64,000 nt of DNA from a virus. Its lineage: Duplodnaviria > Heunggongvirae > Uroviricota > Caudoviricetes. The notes below the pieces were generated by a model that saw only the letters and a program-made list of their open reading frames with translations, did not search any database and was not told the DNA's origin. Numbering within the stretch: position 1 is the stretch's first letter; each line of letters begins with the position of its first letter. A program made the position numbers and the translations under genes. Positions 6,239-53,213 of the stretch are shown piece after piece. The stretch lies in IMG/VR virus record IMGVR_UViG_2654587772_000002, one strand, 5' to 3'.

Positions 6239-6819
6239 CCCTGATTCATCAGCTCTGGCCATACGATATCCGGAGCTGTACTGGTGTCAATTCGACTCAC
6301 TAATACTCTGTATTTTCTCCAGGAATCCAGTTGTGAATTTTCCTCGGTTGTTGCTATTTCAAGATTAACTGCATCCTGCAGAATTGCGATGTTATCTGTT
6401 GCCTCCTGAATCAACCTTGCCTTTTTCTCTTCCGCTTCCCGTATCCGAAACAGTTTTTCTGCTTCCTCATCCTTCACCCAGGATACGCCGTCCCACTTCT
6501 GATACTCCCCTGCTGGCGACAACCAGGTGACATTCTCTGGTAACGGTCCGAGTTCAGAAATAAACAACGCGTCCCCCGATGCCACGTCATAGACCGTTTT
6601 ACCACGATGGTCTTCAACAATAATCCATGATTCATTTTCACTGTTAAAAACTGCCACAAAGCCAGCAGGAATTTCCGGTGGGGCGATATCTGTAGAATTA
6701 GCTGGTAGCCCTGTATGAGGTGGAATATATGCGTCACCTTCACCAATAAACTCATTAGTTCCGGCGAGCAGGTTATAAATTTTTACAGTACGTGATTGTT
6801 CACTCATTCTGAATGCCAT
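6202..6819 (-). CDS. tfa: Tail fibre assembly protein (Tfa/gpU family)
   Basis: N-terminus [54 protein letters not shown] is typical of the enterobacterial Tfa family. Sits immediately downstream of the tail fibre gene. Confidence 0.85.
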
Positions 6820-7709
6820 TATGCAAGCCTCACAATATAATTAAATGCGATGTTTTTAACGGTGTTTTCCGAGTTACCAGCAGCGTTAACGGTGATGGTG
6901 TGTCCATGTGAACCAATCGCAACAGAGTGCGTATGAGCGCCAATATCAACTGTATGTGCATGCGCCCCTGCACTTGCAGCGGTGCCTGATACTGAGTGGG
7001 TGTGTGCACCAGAAGAAGGCACAGTTCCATTCCCCACCACAGTGCCGCTTGATGAGCCATCAAGCCAGTCGAAATTCATACCGCCACCATCTGGTCTCCT
7101 TAATGGAACGGTATGAGTATGTGCGCCAGCACTATTTGCAGTACCAGATACATTGTGGGTATGTGCACCTGTGTTATTCGTTGATTTAGTACCGTAATCA
7201 AACGAAGATGTGGTTTTCGTACCCAAATCCGTATTGGATGCGCTGGCGCTGTGGGTGTGCGATTTAATGCCATCCTGTTCCAGAGACAATACGTCCCGAC
7301 CACTGGCGGGTTTGCCCTTGATTGTCCAGCCACGCATATCCGGGATCACGCCTGACGGATAAGCGGCTGCAAGTTTCGGGTATGCAGATTTGTCAAAAGT
7401 CTGTCCCTGCATCAGGGCGTAACCAGACGGCACAGTATCTGATGGCCACGGATGCGGAACACCAACAGGAAGGACCTCAATATCCCCGGAACCATCAAAC
7501 GAAACGTTATTAATTTTACGGGCTGTTTTCAGCTTTGTAGCCGTTGAGGCATTGCCGGACAGCTCACCAGAAATGCCACCAACAACTGTTAGATCACCAG
7601 TTATTGTGCCGCCTGAACTTTCCAGTTTTTTAGCAACATCACTCTTAATAGAGTCGATTTCTTTTTTCAGATTAGTTATATCTGCTGGTATCGTTGTCAC
7701 TGTTGCCAT
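6819..7709 (-). CDS. Tail fibre distal (receptor-binding) module with HxH/GAHTH repeats
   Basis: Carries the junction motif [26 protein letters not shown], then [32 protein letters not shown], repeated GAHTH(S/T)V motifs and the C-terminal [11 protein letters not shown] typical of side tail fibre tips. Confidence 0.8.
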
Positions 7710-7718
7710 ATTAATTCC

Positions 7719-7997
7719 TTACGCCCATTCCCGCAGCGGTTGTTCTAATTGAACTTCAAAACCATCAAACATTTGTTGTTTCAAACTGTTGTTTAAAATA
7801 CGAACATTAACGAAGAAGCCATCATTTTTAATCACTGTTGGTTCTTCGTTCTCGCCGTTTGGTATTTCGGTATATGTAACACCTACAACATCAAGAAGAA
7901 TGTTGTTTTGCAGCTCTTCATTATCGTGCCAGGATATACTCTCTAAAAAAGAGTCGTATTCTGCCCTGTCTCTGAATTTCAACGTGATATCTTTCAT
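7719..7997 (-). CDS. Hypothetical protein (92 aa) between the tail fibre genes
   Basis: ORF track only. Acidic, no motif recognised. Abuts the stop of the long fibre gene. Confidence 0.4.
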   Translation of the reverse strand: MKDITLKFRDRAEYDSFLESISWHDNEELQNNILLDVVGVTYTEIPNGENEEPTVIKNDGFFVNVRILNNSLKQQMFDGFEVQLEQPLREWA

Positions 7998-10897
7998 TAA
8001 ATAACCTCAGCCATTTGTTGGTCTGTTAATGCTTTATGCCATATTCTGAAATTTCTGATATGACCAAATAAATGACGTAACCCTGCTGTAGTCTGGCCTC
8101 CAATACGGATGGTTGCAGAGTTCTGAATATAGGACCATGTCGTCTTTGTTTCGCTGGATATGCGCCCGTTACTTACTGAGCACGTAGACTGATCTGATTT
8201 TACACGCATCCCCATAACCATTTTTTCAAGCAATGCGTTTTCGTTTACCCGTCTGTTAGCTCCTCCAATATCGCAATAAGGAAATCCGTCGTAATCTGCT
8301 GAAGAACCGAAGCCAAGAATAATAGCCGCTCCGGTTTGATGACCGCCGGTATCAAAAACACGTGGCGCTGCATTTGGCGTTTTATACCAGTTCTTATGTA
8401 CCTCACAAAGAACCGTAAAAGGAAGATTATAAAGATTATTATTAATTGGAACTGTAACTATATCGCTTGCGCGGGTAGCCGCCGTCGTTCCCGAGATAAT
8501 AAAAGATGATGCACACGAACCATCCTCAACCTGAGGGGTGGACAGATAAATATAGTCTCCAGATATGGTTGCTCCGCCCTGCTTAGGAGAATACTGTATC
8601 TGAGATCCTATTTTTAACTCATCATCAATTGCCTGGATTGTTGCCTCTGCAAAAATCCATCCGGTAGCTTCGTCCTTTCTGACTCTCGCTGTAATCCTTG
8701 AGGCCGCGCCACCTGTCATATTAATTTCAAGCGTTTGTGTATCAATATATGCATCACCAAGAAAAGTTGTTGCACTACCGTCATATTTATCAAAGCGGAT
8801 ACGTAACCTTACCTGTCGTTCTGTTTTAAAACGACATGAGGTTGTCACGTACTTGTTATCGCCTGAAACATCAACTGACTTTGTAGCAGCAATTGATGCC
8901 ATATTAATGGCTGACGTTTGCCCAATCAGAGAATCGTTACAGACAAACTTTCCATAGGTAAAACCAAAACTATCCGTCCCGGTTTCGGGAACATCCATAT
9001 TTGACGAGCGCCCCCAACTGGCAGGGTTTTCCGAATTGAGCATGTAGTTTGTTCGTTGTCCCTCAATAAGCAGACCATCACGTTCAAATCGTGGCTCGTC
9101 AATGGCAGCCTCTGTCAGCACACCAGATTTATTTATATAGGTTGCTTTCGATGCGCGTTTAAACTTAACAACCTTGTCGCCAGGCATTGTTATTTCGTCG
9201 TCGCCAATAACAATCTTTTTATATGATGGAGAAAAGCCCGCAATCATATCCAGCGAATCGTTAAACGGTATCCACACATCTGGCAGCGGTTGAATAATCT
9301 TCCTGGCATCCTCCAGTGACAATGCTTCGACATCCGAAGCTGTTAAAGAAATATCTGCCGAACCGTCAAATGAAACGTTGTTAATCATCCGTGCTGTTTT
9401 TAATTTCGTTGCGGTGTCGGCGTTCCCCATCAGTGCGCCGGTGATCCCGCCGTTGAAAGTCTGGCGTGCACTCCATGTGTTAGCCGTGCTCAACAGGGGG
9501 ATCTTTTCACCGCTTGTGCCGAGTTCTCTTAAACCAAGGTATTGGATAACAGCAAGGACGCTTGTTTTGGACAGAATATCGCGACCGACTGACGTTAAGT
9601 CAGTCTGAGAAACAGTGTCTGTACCGGTAAAGTACGGCAGTTTATTTGCGCCTGTAGCAAGACCAGCAAGCGCGGTTAAAGTTGCATCCAGAGGCTGTTT
9701 GCCTGCCAGCGCATTTGTCATTGTTGTCGCAAAGTTCGGGTCATTACCAAGTGCTGCGGCAAGCTCATTCAGGGTATCAAGAGCTTCTGGTGATGAACCA
9801 ACCAATGCGGATATGGCAGCTCTTACATAAGCAGTCGTAGCAATCTGCGTATTATTTGTGCCCTGCGCAGCCGTAGGCGCAGTAGGGACTCCCGTTAATG
9901 CAGGGCTTGCCAAAGGCGCTTTGAGGGCTAGGGCATTGTTGATAGTTGTGCTGAAATTCGGGTCGTTATTGATCGCAGCAGCTATTTCTTTAAGCGTATC
10001 CAGTGTGCCAGGTGCACCGTTGATAAGTGCCGTTATAGCTGACTTAACAAAGGCTGTATTTGCGATCTGCGTGCTATTTGTACCTTGCGCTGCCGTCGGC
10101 GCGGTTGGCGTTCCTGTCAGACTCGGGCTTTCTATTGGCGCTTTGGTATCAGCAAGACCTTTTACAGACTTAACGGCTTTAGGGGTAGCCGCCATTGTTT
10201 CGCTGTCGCTGTTAGTTTCGCTACTGAGCTGAACTAATCCCTTTTGCGTTGTGCTTGCATCCTGTGCCGTATACTTGCTTTTCGCCAGATCGTAGGCTTT
10301 TTTAGCTGCCAGCGAACTTGCAGCAACATCACTTCTGCTACTGGTTACAGAGTCTGAAATATCAATGCCGATCGTGCGGTTAATACGCTCGGATGTATCA
10401 ATCATCTCCTGGGTAATGGCTGATACGCCAGCAGGGATATTCACCGTACAAACAAGCAGCTCTCCATCTCCTAACTGATATGAATCGGTATAGGTTCTGG
10501 CAACAAATTCAGCCGCATGAATATGTGACGCGGTATTAACCTGATAGGTATCCTCTCCAAGGAGGTATCTTCCCTTCAGCACAATTGCATATTTCTTGCC
10601 TTCACTAAGTGCAAGAGAAATATCCTTACGGTGCCGAATAGTTACCTGGTAGAATTCACCAATATCCACTGACGCAGCGCCAGCAGTTTTATCACCATCC
10701 ACTGAGGTGATTAACAGGTTCATACCACCGCCAGGCTTCGGCAGGAAACCGGCATAAAACCCAGGATCAACAATTCCCCTGAATTTTCGGTTTAGCGCGG
10801 CTGACAGATATGGTTCGTGGTATTGCACATCAGCCACCAGAGCCAGTGACTCGGGCGATGGGTAAGTAACTGATGTAACAACTGTAACGTCATTCAT
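7997..10897 (-). CDS. Long tail fibre protein (Stf / gpS-like), about 966 aa from the internal Met
   Basis: Start set by codon arithmetic at Met30 (MNDVTVV...). Contains the TQKGLVQLSSETNSDSETMAATPKAVKSV fibre motif, collagen-like Ala/Thr/Pro repeats, and the junction motif [26 protein letters not shown] followed by its own C-terminal domain. Confidence 0.85.
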   Translation of the reverse strand: MNDVTVVTSVTYPSPESLALVADVQYHEPYLSAALNRKFRGIVDPGFYAGFLPKPGGGMNLLITSVDGDKTAGAASVDIGEFYQVTIRHRKDISLALSEGKKYAIVLKGRYLLGEDTYQVNTASHIHAAEFVARTYTDSYQLGDGELLVCTVNIPAGVSAITQEMIDTSERINRTIGIDISDSVTSSRSDVAASSLAAKKAYDLAKSKYTAQDASTTQKGLVQLSSETNSDSETMAATPKAVKSVKGLADTKAPIESPSLTGTPTAPTAAQGTNSTQIANTAFVKSAITALINGAPGTLDTLKEIAAAINNDPNFSTTINNALALKAPLASPALTGVPTAPTAAQGTNNTQIATTAYVRAAISALVGSSPEALDTLNELAAALGNDPNFATTMTNALAGKQPLDATLTALAGLATGANKLPYFTGTDTVSQTDLTSVGRDILSKTSVLAVIQYLGLRELGTSGEKIPLLSTANTWSARQTFNGGITGALMGNADTATKLKTARMINNVSFDGSADISLTASDVEALSLEDARKIIQPLPDVWIPFNDSLDMIAGFSPSYKKIVIGDDEITMPGDKVVKFKRASKATYINKSGVLTEAAIDEPRFERDGLLIEGQRTNYMLNSENPASWGRSSNMDVPETGTDSFGFTYGKFVCNDSLIGQTSAINMASIAATKSVDVSGDNKYVTTSCRFKTERQVRLRIRFDKYDGSATTFLGDAYIDTQTLEINMTGGAASRITARVRKDEATGWIFAEATIQAIDDELKIGSQIQYSPKQGGATISGDYIYLSTPQVEDGSCASSFIISGTTAATRASDIVTVPINNNLYNLPFTVLCEVHKNWYKTPNAAPRVFDTGGHQTGAAIILGFGSSADYDGFPYCDIGGANRRVNENALLEKMVMGMRVKSDQSTCSVSNGRISSETKTTWSYIQNSATIRIGGQTTAGLRHLFGHIRNFRIWHKALTDQQMAEVI

Positions 10898-20597: not shown

Positions 20598-20783
20598 TTA
20601 AAGCCCGTCTTTGCAGAGACTAGTTGCTGTAGCGGTAAGTTGTGAAACAGGAATGTTAGGGCTGTCCCGTTTCTGAAGATACCCGGCGCTTAGTGTGGAC
20701 TGATGCTCTGCTGCGCTCGCTGGCGTACCAGCGGCAACCAGCCAGACTACTGCGGACAGAATAACAGCACATAATTTACGCAT
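20598..20783 (-). pseudogene. lom: lom remnant: only the signal peptide and first beta-strand (about 35 codons) of the Lom outer-membrane protein, then unrelated sequence
   Basis: MRKLCAVILSAVVWLVAAGTPASAAEHQSTLSAGYL matches the Lom N-terminus as I recall it. The ORF stops at 61 codons, whereas intact Lom is about 200 aa. Directly downstream of J, as in lambda. Confidence 0.6.
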
Positions 20784-20850: not shown

Positions 20851-23800
20851 TCAGCTGATACTGATGCCTGCGGTGGCTTTCTTCATCACCACAACCAGCA
20901 AATCGCTGATACTTGCTGTGGGATACCAGCCATTTACCCACCATGCTGATACCGAAAACTCCAGTGTCATTACGCCACTGCCTGCAGGCATATCAATAAC
21001 ACCCGTGTAAATCAGAGTATTATCCAGAGCCGTTCGGTTATAAATTTCAGCCCCGTTTTTCTTCACTATCAGGCGGCATGACGAATAAGTATCGCTATTC
21101 TCCCGTTCATGTCTGGCACCGCTGAAAGCCACCGCCGGGATAACAATTTGCCGGTCAAACGGCTGATCGTCATAAACCCTGACGGTAATGGTCCCTGATG
21201 GCCACCGTTCCGGTGCACGGGAGTCACGGGGGAAAGCTTTGCCCACTGTTTTAACGAGATCGCCTTCAATCTGGTTCGCGGACAGTTTTCCCAGAACCCG
21301 GCAGTTCTCGTTAATCGTGACGTTGTTGAGCGTCCCGGAGTTCGCATTCACGTTACCGCTGATATCGGCATTTTTTGCCGTCAGCCGCCCGTCCGGTGTC
21401 AGGGAAAATGCCGGAGGATTACCGCCGCTGGTAATGGTGGGAGCCGTCAGATATTTCAGGAACACTTCATTCATAAATATCTGATCGCCCTGACCAACAA
21501 ACATCGGCTTTGTGTTGCCATTCGCAGGATTAATCATCGCAATCCTGTCCGCCGCCAGCAGCACCTGACTCTGCATACCGTCAGGGGTATTCTCAATACC
21601 GGCACCAATACCCGCGATATAAAGGCGTCCGTCCTGCATCTGCTGCAGCTTCACAGCCCACATGCTGTTCAGGTTATTATTTGTATCAACCTGAACCTTC
21701 TGTATCTGCTGAATTGCCGCACTCTGGTCTTCCAGTTTCTTATTGACGGTCTGCGTGATTTCATTGCTGACATCCGTAATGGACGTCCTGATTTCAGCCA
21801 GGTCAGGCGCAAGCTGACCGTTATCAATCTGCGTCCACAGCTCCTGAGCCAGATGGCTTTTCCCTATCTCTCCTTTGAAAAAATCCAGATAGCCGGATGC
21901 ATCATCACTCGGCTGGCCAACAGCCTCCACAAATGCCGATTTGCCAACGGTGTTCACACTGCGGATGTAAAAATAATAATCATGGCCCGGTTTGATATTG
22001 ATACTGGCGGCTATCCAGTACAGCGCCGTGCCAAGATAGCGGGCTGTGGTTTCAACCTGCCTGATATCGGTAATCCGCTTTTCCGAGAACCAGAACTCAA
22101 ACTGTACCGTCGGGTCATAAATGGCAAGATGCGGCGTGGCGGTTATCTGAAAATAGCCCGGCGTCAGCTCAATCCTCGACGGTGCTGCCGGTGCGGCAAT
22201 CCGGAACGATACCGACGCCGCATCGCCCTGCTGCCCCACGCATTTACCGCCCGGACTGTCAGCCTGTAGTTCCCCAGCGCCAGTTGCGTGAAGCGGTATG
22301 TGGTTTCCGTCGTCCGGGCCGTGCTGACCAGCCGCTCACTGCCGTCGTCCGCTGTTACGGTCAGACGGAGCAGGAAGCTCACGCCCTTCACCACCTTCGG
22401 TGTGTCCCATCGCGCCAGCACCTGATATTCCCCGCTGTCTGCAGTGACTTCTGCGGTCAGGTGCTGCACCGCTGGCGGCGTGACACCATTCACCGTGCCA
22501 CTCTGTTCGCCGTCAAAGTGCGCCCCGTTATCCACGATGGCCTCTTTTTCCGGCACATGCTGCACGGCGGTGATGGCATACGTGCCGTCGTCGTTCTCAC
22601 GGATACTCACGCAGCGGAACAGGCGCTGGCGCAGCGTCGGCAGCTTCAGCCCCCATACGCTGTATTCAGCAACACCCTCAGGAACACGGCTCACTTTTAC
22701 CTTCACGCCGTCGTTGACGGACTGAACCTCCACGCTGACCGGATTGCCACTTCCGTCAACCAGGCTTATCAGCGTGGTACCGGAGGATGGCAGCGTGATT
22801 TCACGGTCGAGCGTCAGCGTCCGGGTCTGGCTGTTCACCGCCAGCACACGACCACCGGTGCTGATACCGGCATAGTCATCATCGCAGATTTCAATAACAT
22901 CGCCCGGTACATGGCGAAGCCCTTCTGCGCCGACGCTGAAATCCACGGTCTGCGTCTCCAGCAGCTCCGTTTTAATCAGCCACAGCCCGGCGCGGTGTGC
23001 CTGCCCCCGGCTGGTACAGCCAAAGGCATCCATCTTCGTAACATTACGACCGTAACGGGCAATGGCCTGCGTATCTTCAACAAGCTCTGTCGCCGTCTCC
23101 CAGCCGTTGTCCGGGTCAATCCAGTTCACCTCAACGGCATTATGGCGGTCTTTCAGGGCGCTGAAGCTGTAGCGGAACGGCGCGCCATCATCCGGCATCA
23201 CCACATTACTGCGGTTATAGGTCCACGCCTTATCCGACGGTCGGTCCTGCACGAACGTCAGCGTCTGCCCGTTCCATACCGGCATACAGCGCATCGCCGA
23301 GCAGAAATCACTGAGAACGTCCCACGCCTTGCGCTGTGTGGTCAGGTACGCATTACAGGTGATGCGCGGCTCCGTGCCGCCAAAGCCGTCCGGCACTGAC
23401 TGGTCGCAGTACTGGCCGATGACATACAGCGCCCATTTGTCCACATCCGCCGCACCAAGACGTTTCCCCATGCCGTAGCGCGGATGGGTCAGCATATCCC
23501 ACAGACACCAGGCCATGTTGTTGCTGTATGCTGGCTTAAACGTTCCGTCCCAGATACCGCTGTATTGTCGCGTCTGCGGGTTATAGTTCGACGGCACCTG
23601 CAGAATGCGCCCGCGAAGATGATAATTACGACTCACCTGCTGGCTGCCGAACTGCTCCGAGTCCACCTGTACGCCGACCAGTGCCGTGTTCGGGTAGCAC
23701 TGTTTCACATCGATGATTTCGGTGTATGACGACCAGAGCGTTTTGTTCTGCAGCTGGTCTGTGGTGCTGTCCGGCGTCATCCTGCGCATCCGGATATTAA

Positions 23801-24329
23801 ACGGGCGCGGCGGCAGGTTATCCACCACCACCGAGGCCAGATACTGCGAGGTGGTTTTGCCTTTAATGGTGATGTCTTTTTCCGTCACCCAGCCACCGTT
23901 ACGCTGTATCTGAACCAGCAGGCGGACTTCCGACGGATTCCGGTCCCCCTTTGAGGTGGTTTCCACCAGTGCCTGCACACCGAAGGTAAAGCGCAGACGG
24001 TCGATGTTTGCAGACGTGATGGTCCGGGTAATCGGCGTGTCGTACTTCACTTCCGTACCCAGCACCGTCTCGGAGCCGGAGGATTCAAACCCCTCCGGCG
24101 GTGTCTGCTCCTGCTCACCGGCACGGAACACCACCGTGACACCGGAGATGTTGGTATTCCCCTCAGTGTCCAGCACCGGCGTACTGTTCAGCAGCACGCT
24201 TTTTAATCCATCCACCGGACCTTCAACCGGCCCTTCGCTGATGGCATCGATCACACTCAGCAACTGCGTGGACTTCAGGTTGTCCTTCGCTTCGCGCGGG
24301 GTATGCCCCTTACTGCTTCCTTTACTCAT
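20851..24329 (-). pseudogene. J: Tail tip / host specificity protein J, split by a 1-nt frameshift at about 22234-22237
   Basis: The 721-aa ORF (22164-24329) matches lambda J (MSKGSSKGHTPREAKDNLKSTQLLSVIDAISEGP...) up to ...RAVNAWG, then goes out of frame. The 462-aa ORF (20851-22239) resumes the J sequence ([30 protein letters not shown]...) in another frame. The break is at a GGGG run on the coding strand. Confidence 0.85.
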
Positions 24330-24389: not shown

Positions 24390-25061
24390 TCAGCGACCAA
24401 TCACCACAACCTGACCACCGTCCCCTTCGTCTGCCGTGCTGATCTCCTGAGAAACCACGCGTGACCCCACGCGCATTTCCCCGTACAGAACAGGCAGAAC
24501 ATTGCCCTGGGCAACCATGTTATCCAGTGAGGAGAAATAGGTGTTCTGCTTACCGTTATCCGTTGTCTGTGTACGGGGAGTTCTGGCTTTCGGTGCCAGC
24601 ATCTGCGCCACACCACCGAGGACCATACTGGCACCGAGAGAAAACAGGATGCCGGTCATACCACCGGCCCCAATGGCTGCCCCCCATGCTGCAAGGGTGG
24701 CTCCGGCGGTAAAGAATGATCCGGCAATGGCGGCAGCCCCCAGGACAATCTGGAATACGCCACCTGACTTGGCCCCGGCGACTCTGGGAACAATATGAAT
24801 CACAGCGCCATCAGGCAGAGTCTCATGTAACTGCGCCGTTAACCCGGACGTGCTGACGTCCCGCCCGGCAATCCGTACCTGATACCAGCCGTCGCTCAGT
24901 TTCTGACGAAACGCCGGGAGCTGTGTGGCCAGTGCCCGGATGGCTTCAGCCCCCGTTTTCACACGAAGGTCGATGCGGCGACCAAATCGTTGTAAATCCC
25001 CGTAAAGGCAGATGCGCGCCATGCCCGGTGACGCCAGAGGGAGTGTGTGCGTCGCTGCCAT
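24390..25061 (-). CDS. I: Tail assembly protein I
   Basis: Near-identical to lambda gpI as recalled, including the Gly/Ala-rich hydrophobic middle and C-terminal ...GGQVVVIGR. Confidence 0.9.
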   Translation of the reverse strand: MAATHTLPLASPGMARICLYGDLQRFGRRIDLRVKTGAEAIRALATQLPAFRQKLSDGWYQVRIAGRDVSTSGLTAQLHETLPDGAVIHIVPRVAGAKSGGVFQIVLGAAAIAGSFFTAGATLAAWGAAIGAGGMTGILFSLGASMVLGGVAQMLAPKARTPRTQTTDNGKQNTYFSSLDNMVAQGNVLPVLYGEMRVGSRVVSQEISTADEGDGGQVVVIGR

Positions 25062-25702
25062 TTGTCGGTGTACCTCTCTCGTTTGCTCAGTTGTTCAGGA
25101 ATATGGTGCAGCAGCTCACCGTCACCACAGTAAATGGCGGCATGATTCGGCACCGATGAACCAAAACAGCACAGCAGCACATCGCCCGGCTGCGCCGCTG
25201 ACAACGGCACCTGATACAGCCCTGTGGCCTCCAGATTATCCAGATAGAGATTCTGACCGTGACGCCACCAGTCATCCCCGCGATGAAAATCCGGCATCTC
25301 AATCCCCGCCAGATGATAAGCATCCCGGAACAGCGTGTAACAGTCCGTCACCCCGTGCTCAAAGCGCCGCCCGGTGAGATGCGGCACACAGCGGAACTTA
25401 TGAATCGCCCCCCGGCAGACCAGCCACCACGGCAAATCACTCTGCACCTGCAGCCGCCGGTCAGCCTCACTCAGCCAGGGCAGACCACCGGGGTGGCTGT
25501 GGACCAGCGCCACAATCTCACCCTGCATTTCTGCCTGCAGCCAGTCCTCCGGAGCCATCCGGAAATAATCCTCCGGCTCACCGGAAATATTCACGCCGGG
25601 AAAATATCTTTCCCCCTCCGGCGTGCTTACCACGAAGCCGCACGACTCCGCTGGCGCACATCGCCGGGCGTGCGCCAGAATCGCTGATTCTGTCTGTGTC
25701 AT
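24959..25702 (-). CDS. K: Tail assembly protein K (JAB/MPN plus NlpC/P60-like)
   Basis: Matches lambda gpK (HSHPGG JAMM-like motif; Cys/His NlpC/P60-like C-terminal part). Overlaps I as in lambda. Confidence 0.9.
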   Translation of the reverse strand: MTQTESAILAHARRCAPAESCGFVVSTPEGERYFPGVNISGEPEDYFRMAPEDWLQAEMQGEIVALVHSHPGGLPWLSEADRRLQVQSDLPWWLVCRGAIHKFRCVPHLTGRRFEHGVTDCYTLFRDAYHLAGIEMPDFHRGDDWWRHGQNLYLDNLEATGLYQVPLSAAQPGDVLLCCFGSSVPNHAAIYCGDGELLHHIPEQLSKRERYTDKWQRRTHSLWRHRAWRASAFTGIYNDLVAASTFV

Positions 25703-25707
25703 GGGAT

Positions 25708-26406
25708 TTACTGCGAAAGTTTGTTAATGGAAAGGAAGCCGCCAAAGTTGCCGACGTTATTGCGAAACTTACAGCCACTCAGGCATTTGCTGCATTTATC
25801 CTTCGTGATATCGGACGTCGGCTGGTCATATTCATCCGCGACCGCCGGACCGCTATAACCGCACTCATCGCCGCGATAGGTCCAGGTGCAGGTGTTGGCC
25901 AGCATGATACGTCCCGGAAAAACAGCGCCATCCGTTTCAGTCGGCGTGGACAGTACAAAAGAGGCACTGACCGCGCTCAGTTCGCTGCACTGCTCGATGC
26001 GCCAGCGGCTGATCACCTCCTGCTCCGGATCGGCTTCGCTGTTTCCGTTGACGAAGTTCACCGCATCCAGAAAGCGGGCGTAAACCTTACGCCGGACCAC
26101 CGTTCCGCCGACCAGACTCTGCAGATCTTCCGCCATCCCGGTGATCATGCCGTGCAGGTTAGAGACCGTCAGTGTCGGACGGGCAGCACTGCCCTTGCCG
26201 TTCATCTCAAATCCACTCCCCTGAATGGGATAGGCCTGATACTGCCGACTCTGCCAGGTGACAGACTCACCTTTTTCGTTCTGCTCATTACAGAAAAAGT
26301 AGCGATCCCCGTCTACCTCTGTCAGGTCGATTTCCCAGAGCACCACGCTGGCAGACTGCTCCGCACGAATGCATTCATTCAGCGTTTCCTGTTGTATGTC
26401 CTGCAT
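25708..26406 (-). CDS. L: Minor tail protein L
   Basis: Near-identical to lambda gpL ([31 protein letters not shown]...; C-terminal Cys cluster CSKCLSGCKF). Confidence 0.95.
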   Translation of the reverse strand: MQDIQQETLNECIRAEQSASVVLWEIDLTEVDGDRYFFCNEQNEKGESVTWQSRQYQAYPIQGSGFEMNGKGSAARPTLTVSNLHGMITGMAEDLQSLVGGTVVRRKVYARFLDAVNFVNGNSEADPEQEVISRWRIEQCSELSAVSASFVLSTPTETDGAVFPGRIMLANTCTWTYRGDECGYSGPAVADEYDQPTSDITKDKCSKCLSGCKFRNNVGNFGGFLSINKLSQ

Positions 26407-26744
26407 CAGATCACCACTTCGTCAAACTGACACGAAAAATCGGTATAGGTGATATGTTCTGTCGCTGACCACGTTCGACACACCACTCTGATTTTTCTGT
26501 TAATACCCGGCGGGCGCCAAAAAAAAGATTTATAGCCTTCATGCCGGGCTAAAAATTTTTCAAATGAATCACGTTCATTCGCCTCAACTTTGAAATCACA
26601 GGTGAAAACGCGCAGAGAATGATTAAGTCCATTTGGACTTCGTTGCTCATAACCATCGCCAAATCTTACAGTTTTTATCGATGGTTTATTTTCTGTTTTC
26701 ATTCCATCCTCTGGTAACCAGTGAAATTCTTCCGTATTAGCCAC
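26406..26744 (-). CDS. M: Minor tail protein M
   Basis: VRFGDGY.QR.P.GLN... and C-terminal F.EVV match lambda gpM. Confidence 0.9.
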
Positions 26745-29700
26745 TTAACATTCCCCCATCACGTCGCATATTTAACAGATTGCCCTGCACCCGCTGATCA
26801 ACCATCCCCATAAGTGCTTTTATTGCCTGAGGGCCAATCTCTCCATTCTGGCCGTCATTTTGAATAGTGATTTGGTATACAGGGGCATAGGTAATATCTC
26901 CGCCTCCATTACCACTTTTACTATTAATAGCTCTGACACCAAGAGAACCATCGGAAGTTCGTGTTAATGGCATAATGGCTTCCGGACCAGCCTCACCAAA
27001 AACACCAGCCCCTCTTGCAAAAGCAAAAAATTGCGGGGAATCATAAATACCGTTCGAATACGTGTTCAATGACGGAGACTCATAAACACCGCCCTTTGCA
27101 TTCGGAATAAATTTACTAATAGCACTCCCGATAGTTCCTAAAATCCCCCCAGAAGAACTGTTACTAATGCTGTCGAAAATCCCAGTAATTGAAGCCTTTA
27201 ATGCTATTCGACTAAGATCCGAAATCACGGAAGTAGCGAAAGAACGAAAATTTGCCTTGCCTGTCGTGACAAAATCACCCAGCGCATCGGTCATTCCATC
27301 AAACATCTGAGTCGTGGTTGATTTTATCTGCTCACTGATATCCTTAGTGTCATCCAGCCAGTTATTGAATCCCTGGGAGGCACCACTAACCCAGTCTCCT
27401 GCCTGAATATCGAGCTGCTCGTTTTTCTGTCTGACAATTTCTTTTTCTCGTTCCAGAGCATCATTCAGAGCCTGCATTTTCTCCTGAAAAACATGATTTG
27501 ACATCCCACGGGATTTATCTGCATAGTCACGTTCAAGTTGCAGACGCTGATTGTTATATTCACGTTCAATCCGCAGTAATTCCTGCTGGCGTTGCTGATT
27601 TTTATCGCCAACCCCATAACCAGCAATCTGAATATCATACCCCTGTTGACGATTATCAATCGAAGCCTGCAATGAATCACGCCATGCAGCTATTTCGGCG
27701 GATTCCTTGATTAGCCTGTTATTTTTTTCAATCGCAACATTTTTCTCCATCAACGCGGTTATTTCTTCCAGGTGTAAGAGAAGCGATTTCTGATCCTGGG
27801 TTAATTTCGATGACGGTCGTGACTCCAGGTCGGCAATCTGCTGACGCCACTTAACCAGTTCCTGTTCAGAGGAACTTAATTTAACGGTTAATTCAGTTTG
27901 TGAACTTAGTAACGCATTCTGTTGATTCAGATGATCAATCATTCGTTGGGCAGCATCATCCGAATAACCTTTCGCCTTTGGTTGCTTTGGATCTTTATAA
28001 CGCTCATTTATTTGAGCGATAAAATTATTATATTCTTCCTTTGAATACTGACTCTTTAGCTTTTCCAGTTTTGCAAGTTCACTAGCTCTCTGCTGCTCCC
28101 GGGTCTGATATTGTTTTGAAAAGGCATCTGCTCTCTGTCTGAGTTCAATTCCTTCCTGTTGTCGCTTGTTGTAATCGTTTATTGATGAATTTAGGACGTC
28201 CTGAGCAATTTTTTCTGCTTGAAGTACGCCCAATTGCTGCTTTAATCGTGCCAGCCTTTTATTTTGAGCTCCGCCATCTCCAATGCCACCTAACCCGAAA
28301 ACTCCGGGTCGGGTATTTTTTTCTATTTCATCAATTTGACGGAGAACATCTGAGATTTTTTGATCAAGGGAGGCCTCACGGCCAATGTCCAGCATGGAAT
28401 CCCATGCCCATTTTGCGGAGTCTGCGACAGCTTTCCATGCAGTCTCAAGATAACCAAGATTTTCTTTAATCTGGTTGGTGCGCTGGATCATTGAGGATGA
28501 GTATTCTTCTGTCGCAATGCGGGCGGCCTCCTGCTGGTTCCCTTCATCCTGTAGCGCCTTAATCTGGTTATAAGTCGCAAGTGTCAGAAAATGGTACTGA
28601 TCATTAAGTTTTGATATGGCACTGACAGGATCCTTTGCAATTTCATTGAAGTCATTAACCAGTTGTTCGGTTGATATTCCTGTTACTTCGCTCGTTTTTA
28701 CTATCGCTGTCGTCACTTGCTCCAGCGAACTGCTCGCTACCTTTCCCGAACGCACAAGCTGATTTAATACTGCCGCCGCAGCACCAGTTGTCGAATCAGC
28801 CGCATTCCCGGCACGTTGAGCTATATCGCCCAATTGCCCGCTGGTTGTCCCCAACTGATTTCCGGTAAGAATAAGAGATTTATTAAATTCGTCCTGCTCC
28901 TGAGAGCCTTTATAGTAAGCCAGTCCTAAGACCCCAACGGCTGCTGCGGCCAGGGTAAAAGGATTAATTAATCCCAGCACATAAGAACCTACACCTTTGA
29001 TCGCCGGGCCAATCCCACCGAACATATCTTTTAGCTGGCCGCCCTGCTGCATTAACACCATAAATGGCGACTGACCAGTGGACAACCCAACAACAATATC
29101 CGTCATTTGTGCAGGCAACATGCGCATAGCAAAAGCCGTTTGTTTTGCCGACATTCCGGTTTTGCTTAATTGTGATTGAGTAACCTCAAGCTCACTCCGC
29201 ATAGCACGAAGTTTTCCAGAAAGCTCCTCATACATTTCAGGAGAAAGCATCCCCTTAGCTTTTGCTTCATTGAGCTGTTTCTGTTGTTCTACCAGACGAT
29301 TAAAAGCAGTTCCGACAGGATCAAGTTGAGCAATCAGACGTTGCAAAGCAACAACCTGTTCATCATGCGCTTTTGCTGCTTCTCGCTCTGCCTGAGCCTC
29401 TCCGGTAAGCTCTCGCCGTGTTTCCTGTATTTTTCGGCTATAATTCTCAAACTGAGAACCATTTATTTTCCCGGATGCAAACGCAGCATTAAGTTCATCA
29501 TGCTGTTGTTCAAGATTTCTTAGCGCCGCAGCCAGAGGGTCGATCTTGTCCAGCATTCTTTGAAAGGCCTGAGCCTGCGCTTCCTGCTGGGCGGCAGCAA
29601 GTTTTCCGGCCTTCTCGGCTTCTCTCTGCGCTTGCGCAACCCCGCTCAATTCCTCTGTGGTTTCATTAAGTTTACGGACAAGAAATTCATATTCTTCTTT

Positions 29701-29970
29701 ATCAATAAGCCCTTTATCGAAAAATTTCTTTAATTCAGAATAGCGTCGACCGACAGTATCAATTGCGGCACCAACTGGATCAATAGCTGCTTTTAATTTT
29801 GCGAGCGCGTTCTTCTCATCTTCTGTTGCCTTAGTCACTTTCCCTGCGCTATTTGCAGCAGTTTCCCCAGCCTGCGTCATTTTGACTAATGAGGAGGTCA
29901 GATTGTCAGCATTATTTTTCGCTCCAGTGCTATCAATAATTATTGCGAGACGCGAGGTTTGCTCTGCCAT
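26737..29970 (-). CDS. H: Tail tape measure protein (gpH-like, 1077 aa)
   Basis: Long coiled-coil N-terminal region and hydrophobic segments. Sits between GT and M as in lambda. Confidence 0.9.
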
Positions 29971-49660: not shown

Positions 49661-49713
49661 TCAACAATTTGCACTTAAGGTATTTATTTTCCCAAACACA
49701 TAGAGAGTAAATT

Positions 49714-51105
49714 ATGACTGAGAACACGACTCCAACAGCAGACTTTAGTCCTAGTAAAAGATTTTTTGTGAGTATGCTAACTCGAGATATCGACTTAAAC
49801 GATGCCATACTTGATCTGCTTGATAACTGCGTCGATGGGGCTTTACGTACAATAAAAGACACAAAAAAAACTTCAAAACCATATGAAGGATTTTATGCGA
49901 AACTTACGATTAATAAAGATGTCTTTATTATAGAAGACAATTGCGGAGGTATCCCTAAAAGCTTCCGAGAATATGCTTTTAAAATGGGACGACCCCATCA
50001 AAAAGAAGAAGAAAATGAAGGCACCGTTGGCGTCTATGGTATTGGTATGAAAAGAGCCATTTTTAAAATGGGTAGAGATTGCTCAATACAATCGAATAAT
50101 CCCGATGGCGCATTCACTGTAGATATAACACCTGATTGGATCGATGGTGATGGTTGGAAAATACCGATGCACGAGAGTGACTATGATAACAAAAATCCAA
50201 CAGGCACAACTATAGAGATAAAAAAACTCCATTCTAATGTGGCACAAAAATTTAATGAGAGCACATATCTTACTGATCTCTTTTTACAGATAAAACACTC
50301 ATTGTCATTTATTATTCAAAAAGGATTTAAAATAGAATTAAATGGAGTTGTTGTTGAACATAATCCGATTAACATCATAACTGATCATTCTAAAATAGAA
50401 CCATACATATATAAAGCTAAAATAGACGATGTTGATATCGATTTAGTTGTTGGCTTCTATAAAAATTTAGAAGATGACAATGATGATGTTTTAGAAAAAA
50501 GGAGTTCTGATGATGCTGGATGGACTGTCATTTGCAATGACCGCGTTGTTCTATATTGTGATAAGACACATCTCACAGGTTGGGGCTTTGCTAATGTACC
50601 AAGGTTTCATACCCAATTTATAGCAATTTCTGGGGTTGTTCGCTTTACCAGTAAAAACCCAGAAAAATTACCAATAACAACAACGAAACGAGGTGTCGAT
50701 CTTAGTTCTACATTGTACAATGATGTACGAAATAAAATGATTGAAGGGATGATGCATTTTATTCGATTCACCAATCAGTGGAAAGGTGAGCATCTTGAAG
50801 AAGGGAAAAAATTACTTAAGTCAGCTCAGTCACATGAAGCTCAATCTTTATTTGAAATTACCCCACAATCAACTCCAGAAGATAAAAAAAATAACTGGTC
50901 CAACCCTAATAGAAACAAAAATGAGTGGCGATATACACCTAAGCTGCCTACCCCAGTAAAAAAAAGCTCTACTGTACGAATAATCTTCACCAGAGAGAAA
51001 GAAGATGTTAAAATTTTATCTAAATATTTCTTTGGACATGAAGATGCTAGCGCTTCTGATGTGGGGATGCAATGCTTTGATACGGTGATTGAAGAGGTGA
51101 AGTGA
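49714..51105 (+). CDS. GHKL-family (histidine kinase / MutL / MORC-like) ATPase, 463 aa
   Basis: Bergerat-fold motifs in order: N-box LDLLDNCVDGA, G1-box IIEDNCGGIP, G2-box GTVGVYGIGMKRAIF. AT-rich. No histidine-kinase dimerisation domain and no receiver domain recognised. Confidence 0.9.
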   Translation: MTENTTPTADFSPSKRFFVSMLTRDIDLNDAILDLLDNCVDGALRTIKDTKKTSKPYEGFYAKLTINKDVFIIEDNCGGIPKSFREYAFKMGRPHQKEEENEGTVGVYGIGMKRAIFKMGRDCSIQSNNPDGAFTVDITPDWIDGDGWKIPMHESDYDNKNPTGTTIEIKKLHSNVAQKFNESTYLTDLFLQIKHSLSFIIQKGFKIELNGVVVEHNPINIITDHSKIEPYIYKAKIDDVDIDLVVGFYKNLEDDNDDVLEKRSSDDAGWTVICNDRVVLYCDKTHLTGWGFANVPRFHTQFIAISGVVRFTSKNPEKLPITTTKRGVDLSSTLYNDVRNKMIEGMMHFIRFTNQWKGEHLEEGKKLLKSAQSHEAQSLFEITPQSTPEDKKNNWSNPNRNKNEWRYTPKLPTPVKKSSTVRIIFTREKEDVKILSKYFFGHEDASASDVGMQCFDTVIEEVK

Positions 51106-52094
51106 TGTCTGGACAATACATTCCCTATCACTTAAGGCATAATAAGTCTATTGATAGAGAGATTTTTCTCGAAAGCCTAAACCTCTTAAGCAAAAGACTA
51201 AATATTCAAGAATATACATATATAGGTTTTGGTGGTCCGATGCTTGAAGATTTTAGAATCATGCATAATCGTATCGCTCTTTCTGATATGATTTCTCTCG
51301 AAGAACAAGAGTCTACTCACATCAGACAAAAATATAATTTGCCTTATAATTGTATTGATTGTAAGCTAATATCAGCTCATGACTTTATTCTTGATTATAG
51401 TTTTTCTAAACCATCAATAACATGGTTAGACTATGCCTCCCCGAAAAAAATACAAACGGATCTAGATGATATACACTTACTAAGTACTAAAGTAAGCTCT
51501 TTTGATATTTTGAAGGTCACCTTCCCCATAAATCCTAGTTCTTATTACCAACGTAGAGTTGGAGAAAGTTTAGATATTTTTAAAGAAGCTTTTATTAATT
51601 CATTAAAATCATTGCTTGGGAAAAAGTATCTTGATTTTAATCTTCAGATATCAAATGCAGATCTTTCAGATCGTAAGATTAAAGCTCTTTTAATACGAAT
51701 TATTACAAACGCTTTTAGATCAGCAATAGAACGTGGTCTTTCAGGACGTAAGGATAAGATTCAGTATTACCCATTATCTTTAAATCAATATAATGATGGC
51801 AGTCATACCATGTTGACAATATCAGGTTTTTTCTCCTCAGAACAAGAATATATAGAGTTATCTAAGGCATGCGACCTTTCTAACTGGCAATTTTATTCAA
51901 CAAATTGGGAAGACGTGCAAGAAATAGCAATACCAACACTAACAATTAAAGAAAAGATAAATTTAGATAGTAAACTGCCTGATAAAGAAGCATATCAGGC
52001 AGCCGCTGAAGAGTTCTCTTTAAACGAAAATGAACGGGATAACTATTATAAATACTATAGGTTATACCCTAACTTCCAAAGAATTATGGTTTAA
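51105..52094 (+). CDS. Unknown protein (329 aa), translationally coupled to the GHKL ATPase
   Basis: Start overlaps the upstream stop (TGATG). No recognisable catalytic motif. Its 3' end overlaps the 3' end of the convergent methyltransferase by about 33 nt. Confidence 0.85.
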   Translation: MSGQYIPYHLRHNKSIDREIFLESLNLLSKRLNIQEYTYIGFGGPMLEDFRIMHNRIALSDMISLEEQESTHIRQKYNLPYNCIDCKLISAHDFILDYSFSKPSITWLDYASPKKIQTDLDDIHLLSTKVSSFDILKVTFPINPSSYYQRRVGESLDIFKEAFINSLKSLLGKKYLDFNLQISNADLSDRKIKALLIRIITNAFRSAIERGLSGRKDKIQYYPLSLNQYNDGSHTMLTISGFFSSEQEYIELSKACDLSNWQFYSTNWEDVQEIAIPTLTIKEKINLDSKLPDKEAYQAAAEEFSLNENERDNYYKYYRLYPNFQRIMV

Positions 52095-53213
52095 ATATTC
52101 GGGCTGTACTCTTTTATTTAATAAATTGTACAGCCCCTTTAATATATATTCAGCAACTATTGGTGACACGCTATTTCCTATTTGTCTGAAACTATGCCAT
52201 TTAGTTACATGAAAGCGAAACCAATCAGGGAAGCCTTGTAATCTAGCAGCTTCTCTTGGTGTAATCACTCTTGGATGATAAGGGTGGATCGGCCTGACGG
52301 CTTGAAAGCTTCCTTTATCTCTAGCGGTTCCCGCCCTTAAAGTCGGGCAAAAACCATTTGGATCTAATCTTGTAGATCTTGAAATTTTATCAGTTTCCCC
52401 AAAAGATAAGGAAGCATAACGCTCTTGGACGATTTTGCTATGTAATGTTCCGGTACATCCAGATATGATATTATTTTTTAACTTAGCGATCGATTCTGTA
52501 TCACCAACATTCCGAGGGATCTGCCCCCATAATTTTTCATAAAATCCCCCTTTTCGATCTTTTTTAATTGTTCGCCAACTCTCAGAGTCTGATTGCCAAT
52601 TGGCATCGATAATATCTGGTAATCCATACAAAGCATCTTTTACAGTAACCGGATCAATCATTTTAGGCATAAATACTTCATCTGAAATATCAAGCTTCAA
52701 TGATTTTTTTACACCGATAAAAAAATATCTAGTTCGAATAGTTGGAGCACCATAATCAGATGCTTTTACCTTGATGGGATCAAGAATATCATAATCACCG
52801 CTAACCAAATTAAATGCTTTATTTCTAATGCCAGAATATTTCTCTTGCATAATACCTGGAACATTTTCTGCCAAAAAGAATAATGGCTGTAATTCTGATA
52901 CTAAACGGTAGAAATGCATGTAAAGCTGATTCCTGCTATCATCAGGATTCCCCTTGCCTATTGAACTAAATCCTTGGCACGGAGGACCGCCAATAATACC
53001 ATCTATGGGCATATCGTTTTTAAAAAAACCCTTAATTATTTCTGCATTTAGTAAAGAAACATCTTCTTGGACGTGCAAACTTCTTGGAAAATTAATTGCG
53101 TGAGTATTAATAGCATGTTGATCAATTTCAACTGCCATTTTAACATCAAATCCAGCACGTGCAGCACCAAGACTTAGACCTCCAACGCCAGAAAACAAAT
53201 CTATTACATTCAT
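52062..53213 (-). CDS. DNA (cytosine-5)-methyltransferase, 383 aa
   Basis: Motif I DLFSGVGG, motif IV GGPPCQGFS, motif VI ENV, motif VIII Q.R.R-like. AT-rich. Confidence 0.95.
   Translation of the reverse strand: MNVIDLFSGVGGLSLGAARAGFDVKMAVEIDQHAINTHAINFPRSLHVQEDVSLLNAEIIKGFFKNDMPIDGIIGGPPCQGFSSIGKGNPDDSRNQLYMHFYRLVSELQPLFFLAENVPGIMQEKYSGIRNKAFNLVSGDYDILDPIKVKASDYGAPTIRTRYFFIGVKKSLKLDISDEVFMPKMIDPVTVKDALYGLPDIIDANWQSDSESWRTIKKDRKGGFYEKLWGQIPRNVGDTESIAKLKNNIISGCTGTLHSKIVQERYASLSFGETDKISRSTRLDPNGFCPTLRAGTARDKGSFQAVRPIHPYHPRVITPREAARLQGFPDWFRFHVTKWHSFRQIGNSVSPIVAEYILKGLYNLLNKRVQPEYLNHNSLEVRV

Follow-up and report, generated by a model that had tools for sequence, protein, structure and literature searches.

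Homopolymer under-calling as the probable cause of a split tip attachment gene J in an Escherichia coli Rac-type prophage

Is the host specificity gene J of this prophage broken in the bacterium that carries it, or only in the assembly? The window, that is the whole stretch of 64,000 nucleotides that was analysed, contains a J gene (gpJ, tip attachment or host specificity protein; 20851..24329, minus strand) of 3479 nt, compared with 3480 nt in its relatives. A single reading frame for J is present in all close relatives and absent from the window as given, where the gene is divided between two ORFs of the minus strand. ORF A (22164..24329, 721 aa) encodes J residues 1-699, the last of which are ...RAVNAWG, and runs on into 22 out-of-frame codons and a stop. 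ORF B (20851..22239, 462 aa) begins at a fortuitous GTG start, then follows J residues 699-1159 in the -1 frame relative to ORF A and reaches the normal J C-terminus, so that it contains the second Ig domain, the central fibre and the C-terminal receptor-binding domain. The frame changes at GCG TGG GGC AGC of the J coding strand, in a GGGG run (22234..22237, minus strand; CCCC on the plus strand) that is the apparent site of a 1-nt deletion and reads GGGGG in relatives. Insertion of one G at this run gave a continuous J ORF of 3480 nt and 1159 codons. The contrast between G4 and G5 is a definite single-base difference and not a chance pattern. An earlier sequence-only reading had already described a J gene split by a 1-nt frameshift at a G4 run, with a match to J up to RAVNAWG and a resumption of J in another frame of a downstream ORF, and had placed the break at 22164-22240, which is the overlap of ORF A and ORF B. 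All of this was seen again in the ORFs; only its count of 23 unrelated codons before the stop has to be lowered to 22, as 23 is reached only when the stop itself is counted.

The feature is a lambda-type tip attachment protein J (gpJ/TipJ), as indicated by homology, domain series and gene position alike. After repair of the G run, the predicted protein was identical to gpJ WP_025234914.1 of the E. coli ST2747 assembly CP007394, showed 83% identity over 1159 aa to lambda J (NP_040600), and matched the structure PDB 8iyk with E = 0. Six gpJ-specific Pfam domains scored above their cut-offs: FNIII-A_GpJ (residues 86-207), Phage-tail_3 (330-498), Ig_J (610-714), Ig_J_second (716-818), Phage_Tail_Tip (872-1000) and Ig_GpJ_C (1029-1159). 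The frameshift lies within Ig_J, the first Ig-like domain. Upstream of J, the genes of the tail-tip module (tape measure H, M, L, K and I; 24390..29970, minus strand) stand in lambda order and are all open in the window, according to the ORFs and to the RefSeq annotation of the identical DNA in CP007394 and FDAARGOS_1279; the tape measure gene itself occupies 26737..29970 (minus strand). The gene order H-M-L-K-I-J-lom-stf is thereby followed as far as the window allows, with lom cut by a contig join and stf missing. The J gene shares with lambda J the order of Pfam domains, the gene neighbourhood and a G5 run at the homologous W-G-Q-Q codons. It differs in being 27 residues longer once repaired and in diverging over residues 801-950 and 1001-1159.

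The gene belongs to a full-length Rac-type prophage (window 20673-64000) that carries racR, ydaS/T, kilR, sieB, recET and trkG. Unlike the defective Rac of K-12, this prophage has complete head and tail genes, and nearly identical copies were found in FDAARGOS_1279, where it has an IS3 insertion, and in MB07011. Between its replication and late-regulation genes, at about window 49700-53200 (equivalent to L007 11306-14805), annotation shows a cluster that encodes a DNA cytosine methyltransferase together with an O-methyltransferase and an ATP-binding protein, and that could be a modification or defence module.

A search of 5426 complete E. coli genomes with megablast returned CP007394 as the best match to the J region, 100% identical but for a single gap, and its gpJ is annotated as intact. 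The two genes are identical in DNA sequence over 3479 nt and have the same flanking H-M-L-K-I and lom genes. They differ in the run, which is G5 in CP007394 and G4 in the window, and in the reading frame, which is one 1159-codon ORF in the former and two ORFs in the latter. Window 20673-64000 was then compared base by base with CP007394 and CP007393, both ST2747 assemblies in RefSeq, and with FDAARGOS_1279, an independent strain. Between the window and CP007394 there were no substitutions and 11 one-base indels, ten of them private to CP007394 and one, the J G run, private to the window. Against CP007393, only indel-associated mismatches and about 12 one-base indels were found; apart from the J site, all of them are private to CP007393. 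FDAARGOS_1279 differed from the window by 19 substitutions and one indel, which is again the J site. G4 in the window stands against G5 in all three, which is the comparison with J genes of related prophages that the earlier reading had proposed as a check. Over these 43 kb, private one-base indels number at least ten in each sister assembly and one in the window; the window as a whole has one in about 60 kb of comparable sequence.

The private differences of the sister assemblies have a characteristic form. Each of the ten CP007394 indels is one base short and lies in an A/T run between window 29032 and 31011. Together they break its copies of the tape measure, ydaY and tail-tube genes, while the window, CP007393 and FDAARGOS_1279 are free of them, and they display the error load of the ST2747 sequencing project. 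In CP007393, a messy cluster at 20974-21139 is accompanied by single differences at 25355, 31012 and 48237. RefSeq flags frameshifts in the tape measure gene of CP007394 and in K, lom, the tail tube gene and the DUF1133 gene of CP007393. The same-strain assemblies are thus separated by private run-length differences with almost no substitutions. Differences that fall at other sites in each ST2747 assembly and consist nearly entirely of homopolymer lengths are the pattern expected of consensus errors and not of mutations.

The position of the J site within the contigs is also informative. The lom gene (20598..20783, minus strand) is cut after about 110 nt at the contig end and abutted to P1-like DNA at 20672/20673. 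Window 1-20672 consists of P1-like phage-plasmid DNA, including genes for a sit-like transglycosylase, DarA, a tail fibre and a holin, with 97-98% identity to E. coli plasmids of 95-100 kb. In CP007393 and CP007394 the joins of this P1-like DNA lie elsewhere, and the junction at 20672/20673 is a scaffold concatenation, not an integrated element. The J indel lies 1.56 kb from this join. In the sister assemblies, the ten indels of CP007394 lie 0.2-2.2 kb from its own join, and the error cluster of CP007393 occupies the last 1.5 kb before its join.

Some further differences were noted in the P1-like part. At window 7668, the window has T6 and CP007393 has T7; as the window version keeps a tail-fibre ORF of 296 aa (6819..7709) open, the error was assigned to CP007393. 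At window 5240, in an apparently intergenic position, C6 is found in the window and in CP007393, compared with C7 in the P1-like plasmid of MINF_9A; either the two assemblies share a miscall here or the difference is genuine. In the P1-like tail-fibre gene, the variable part (window 7929-9515) shares 93.5% identity with the 3′ end of the stf gene of the Rac-like prophage. CP007393 lacks this segment, and the genes on either side of the gap carry partial annotations; either a repeat was collapsed or the assembly lost the segment. Additional frameshifts were considered in the tail-fibre ORFs of this part (995, 92 and 296 aa) and rejected, because their arrangement is the natural three-gene layout of a prophage stf.

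The three ST2747 genomes are those of a nitrofurantoin-sensitive parent and two resistant derivatives, one aerobic and one anaerobic, obtained in vitro by three platings (PMC3983296). Each was sequenced with one PacBio RS II SMRT cell using C2 chemistry, at about 28x, and assembled with HGAP only, and about 14 scaffolds per genome were ordered into a "gapless chromosome" (PMC3983296). Since the window matches neither RefSeq record exactly and shows no substitutions against CP007394, it is probably the third ST2747 assembly, with CP007392 as the probable record, and its sequencing platform would then be that of the project. No recorded protein was an exact match to ORF A, ORF B or the chimeric lom ORF. 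The error rate of this technology is illustrated by a finished Clostridium autoethanogenum genome produced with RS II data only. Its 4.35 Mb contained about 240 false one-base deletions, most of which fell in runs of 4-8, and Sanger sequencing of sampled sites verified that they were errors (PMC4687164). This corresponds to about one false deletion per 18 kb and predicts two to three such errors per 60 kb. The J site resembles those cases in that a run of 4-8 is one base short and a gene becomes two ORFs, in data of the same technology and period; it differs in that the errors were proven there by Illumina and Sanger data, whereas the case for J is comparative only.

How common is the G4 form elsewhere? 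Lambda itself has G5 at this site, and J was detected by megablast in 4656 of the 5426 complete E. coli genomes. A 62-nt query carrying G4 matched 4775 places in 2920 genomes, none of them at 99% identity or more. As this query alone cannot separate G4 with one SNP from G5 (both give 98.4%), a 34-nt query centred on the run, which seeds only on the G4 allele, was used instead, and it found matches in two of the 5426 genomes. An exact G4 22-mer had no match in 185,579 species-representative genomes, and in IMG/VR it occurred in two contigs, compared with at least 120 contigs for the G5 23-mer. Among 132 J loci that were fetched, 128 had G5 and one ORF, and the other four had G4 and were ridden with indels. 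The G4 genomes Combat2C1 and ECO_1_S showed 16 and 8 gap openings in 5 kb, with L, K and J flagged as frameshifted, and for the two G4 contigs of IMG/VR the counts were 93 and 140 in about 5 kb. Because all four other G4 sequences are full of indels, G4 at the J site is best read, at the level of sequence comparison, as a recurrent miscall and not as a circulating allele.

These observations suggest that the split J is very probably an assembly artefact, in which G5 was under-called as G4 in a consensus built from long reads only. An intact J of 1159 codons would have been read with one G too few in a low-coverage, unpolished PacBio consensus, about 1.5 kb from a contig end, and we infer that the reads would show G5. 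This explanation is favoured by the G5 of the same-strain sister assemblies and of essentially all other J genes, by the confinement of the remaining G4 copies to indel-filled sequences, and by the location of the J indel near a contig join, where the private indels of the sister assemblies pile up. Of the three options that the sequence-only reading had left side by side, the homopolymer sequencing error is thus the favoured one, and a defective tail and a slippage-prone or programmed tract found no support.

The main rival, which we consider unlikely, is a real -1 frameshift in the isolate that would cut J short at residue 699, within its first Ig-like domain. Its appeal is that the sequence as given does have G4 and that homopolymers are natural slippage hot spots, so that real -1 mutations also favour them. 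It is helped by the local cleanness of the window assembly, which tells against an artefact: three other G5 runs and one C5 run in J were called correctly, and the 43 kb prophage holds no second indel private to the window. Moreover, the strain set includes derivatives selected on nitrofurantoin; this drug is a nitrofuran mutagen, and two of the three ST2747 isolates were selected on it. A slippage mutation may thus have arisen during exposure to nitrofurantoin, which damages DNA and induces prophages, and have knocked out the tail-tip protein, although this scenario too seems improbable. If the mutation were real, J would lack its central fibre and receptor-binding domain, and the lysogen would release non-adsorbing particles. 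However, both sister assemblies have G5 with no substitutions separating them, and were the window the parent, both derivatives would need to have reverted. At the mutation rates of E. coli, far fewer than one real mutation would be expected in 1% of the genome over three platings, as opposed to the two to three false homopolymer deletions per 60 kb expected from the technology (PMC4687164). Elsewhere G4 is restricted to indel-ridden sequences, and the site is close to a contig end, a setting in which the quality of the sister assemblies falls as well.

It is also conceivable, though very unlikely, that full-length J is produced from G4 by -1 ribosomal frameshifting, by transcriptional slippage or by on/off switching of the tract. 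A -1 shift at UGG_GGC would indeed restore the exact wild-type W-G-Q-Q, and the lambda G/GT frameshift offers a parallel, being likewise a programmed -1 shift at a G-rich site in a tail gene of a lambdoid phage. G/GT, which encodes the tail assembly chaperone, uses a canonical slippery heptamer that is conserved across phages. In contrast, the J site is not slippery, since G_UGG_GGC is no X_XXY_YYZ heptamer and the Trp codon UGG in the P site cannot re-pair on GUG, and every good genome encodes J in one ORF. Downstream of the site, a stretch of 80 nt folds at -33 kcal/mol with a z-score of -1.03, a stability also reached by 31 of 200 shuffled sequences. In relatives, viable phages among them, J has G5 and forms one ORF, and a conserved two-frame arrangement was not found in good genomes among the 132 fetched loci and the 5426 E. 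coli genomes. Programmed frameshifting was therefore rejected, with no slippery heptamer, no significant downstream structure and no conservation. Phase variation fares no better, as no good-quality genome showed a length polymorphism; only lengths of 5 and 4 were seen, the latter in error-laden assemblies. A run of 4-5 G is also too short for the known cases of transcriptional slippage or of contingency loci.

Apart from the break, the C-terminal part of J raises the question of which receptor it recognises. The first 800 residues of the repaired protein are at least 92% identical to lambda J, but identity falls to 28-60% in residues 801-950 and to 29-54% in residues 1001-1159. The last 174 aa show 47.7% identity to lambda, in agreement with the divergence that had been claimed for this part. 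The same 174 aa are 93-98% identical to those of the plaque-forming phages PhiR47_1, PhiR55_1 and vB_EcoS-783R2 and of several Stx2a phages. The J allele is a common and widespread one that is found in viable phages, as part of the routine mosaicism of lambdoid phages. Among solved receptor-binding domains, the nearest is that of "A8 gpJ" (PDB 9wca), with 64% identity over the last 174 aa. "A8" is a natural variant of the gpJ C-terminus, and engineered lambda particles carrying it enter through OmpC (PMC11338833). It is closer to the C-terminus of the window J than that of lambda is (64% versus 47.7%), but 64% identity is too low to transfer its receptor specificity. Given the divergence of residues 801-950 and 1001-1159 and the 47.7% identity to lambda of the last 174 aa, recognition of LamB by this J is not assured. 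Since the nearest solved relative of its C-terminus is a gpJ variant that uses OmpC, a receptor other than LamB, as suggested by the earlier reading, is plausible. The literature searched offered nothing usable on the receptors of the PhiR phages derived from ECOR strains, which share the receptor-binding domain of this J; E. coli C and ECOR13 are recorded as hosts of phages with this domain.

The importance of the finding is mainly one of quality control. The window contains artificial contig joins, by which P1-like plasmid DNA has been stitched to the prophage, and neither these joins nor the split of J call for a biological reading. If the split J were taken at face value, a complete and probably inducible Rac-type prophage would be miscalled as defective, and two spurious J fragments would be recorded. 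In the organism, the J gene is almost certainly intact, as judged from the sequence comparisons; most likely it is a normal J that matches the gene of the sister assemblies exactly.
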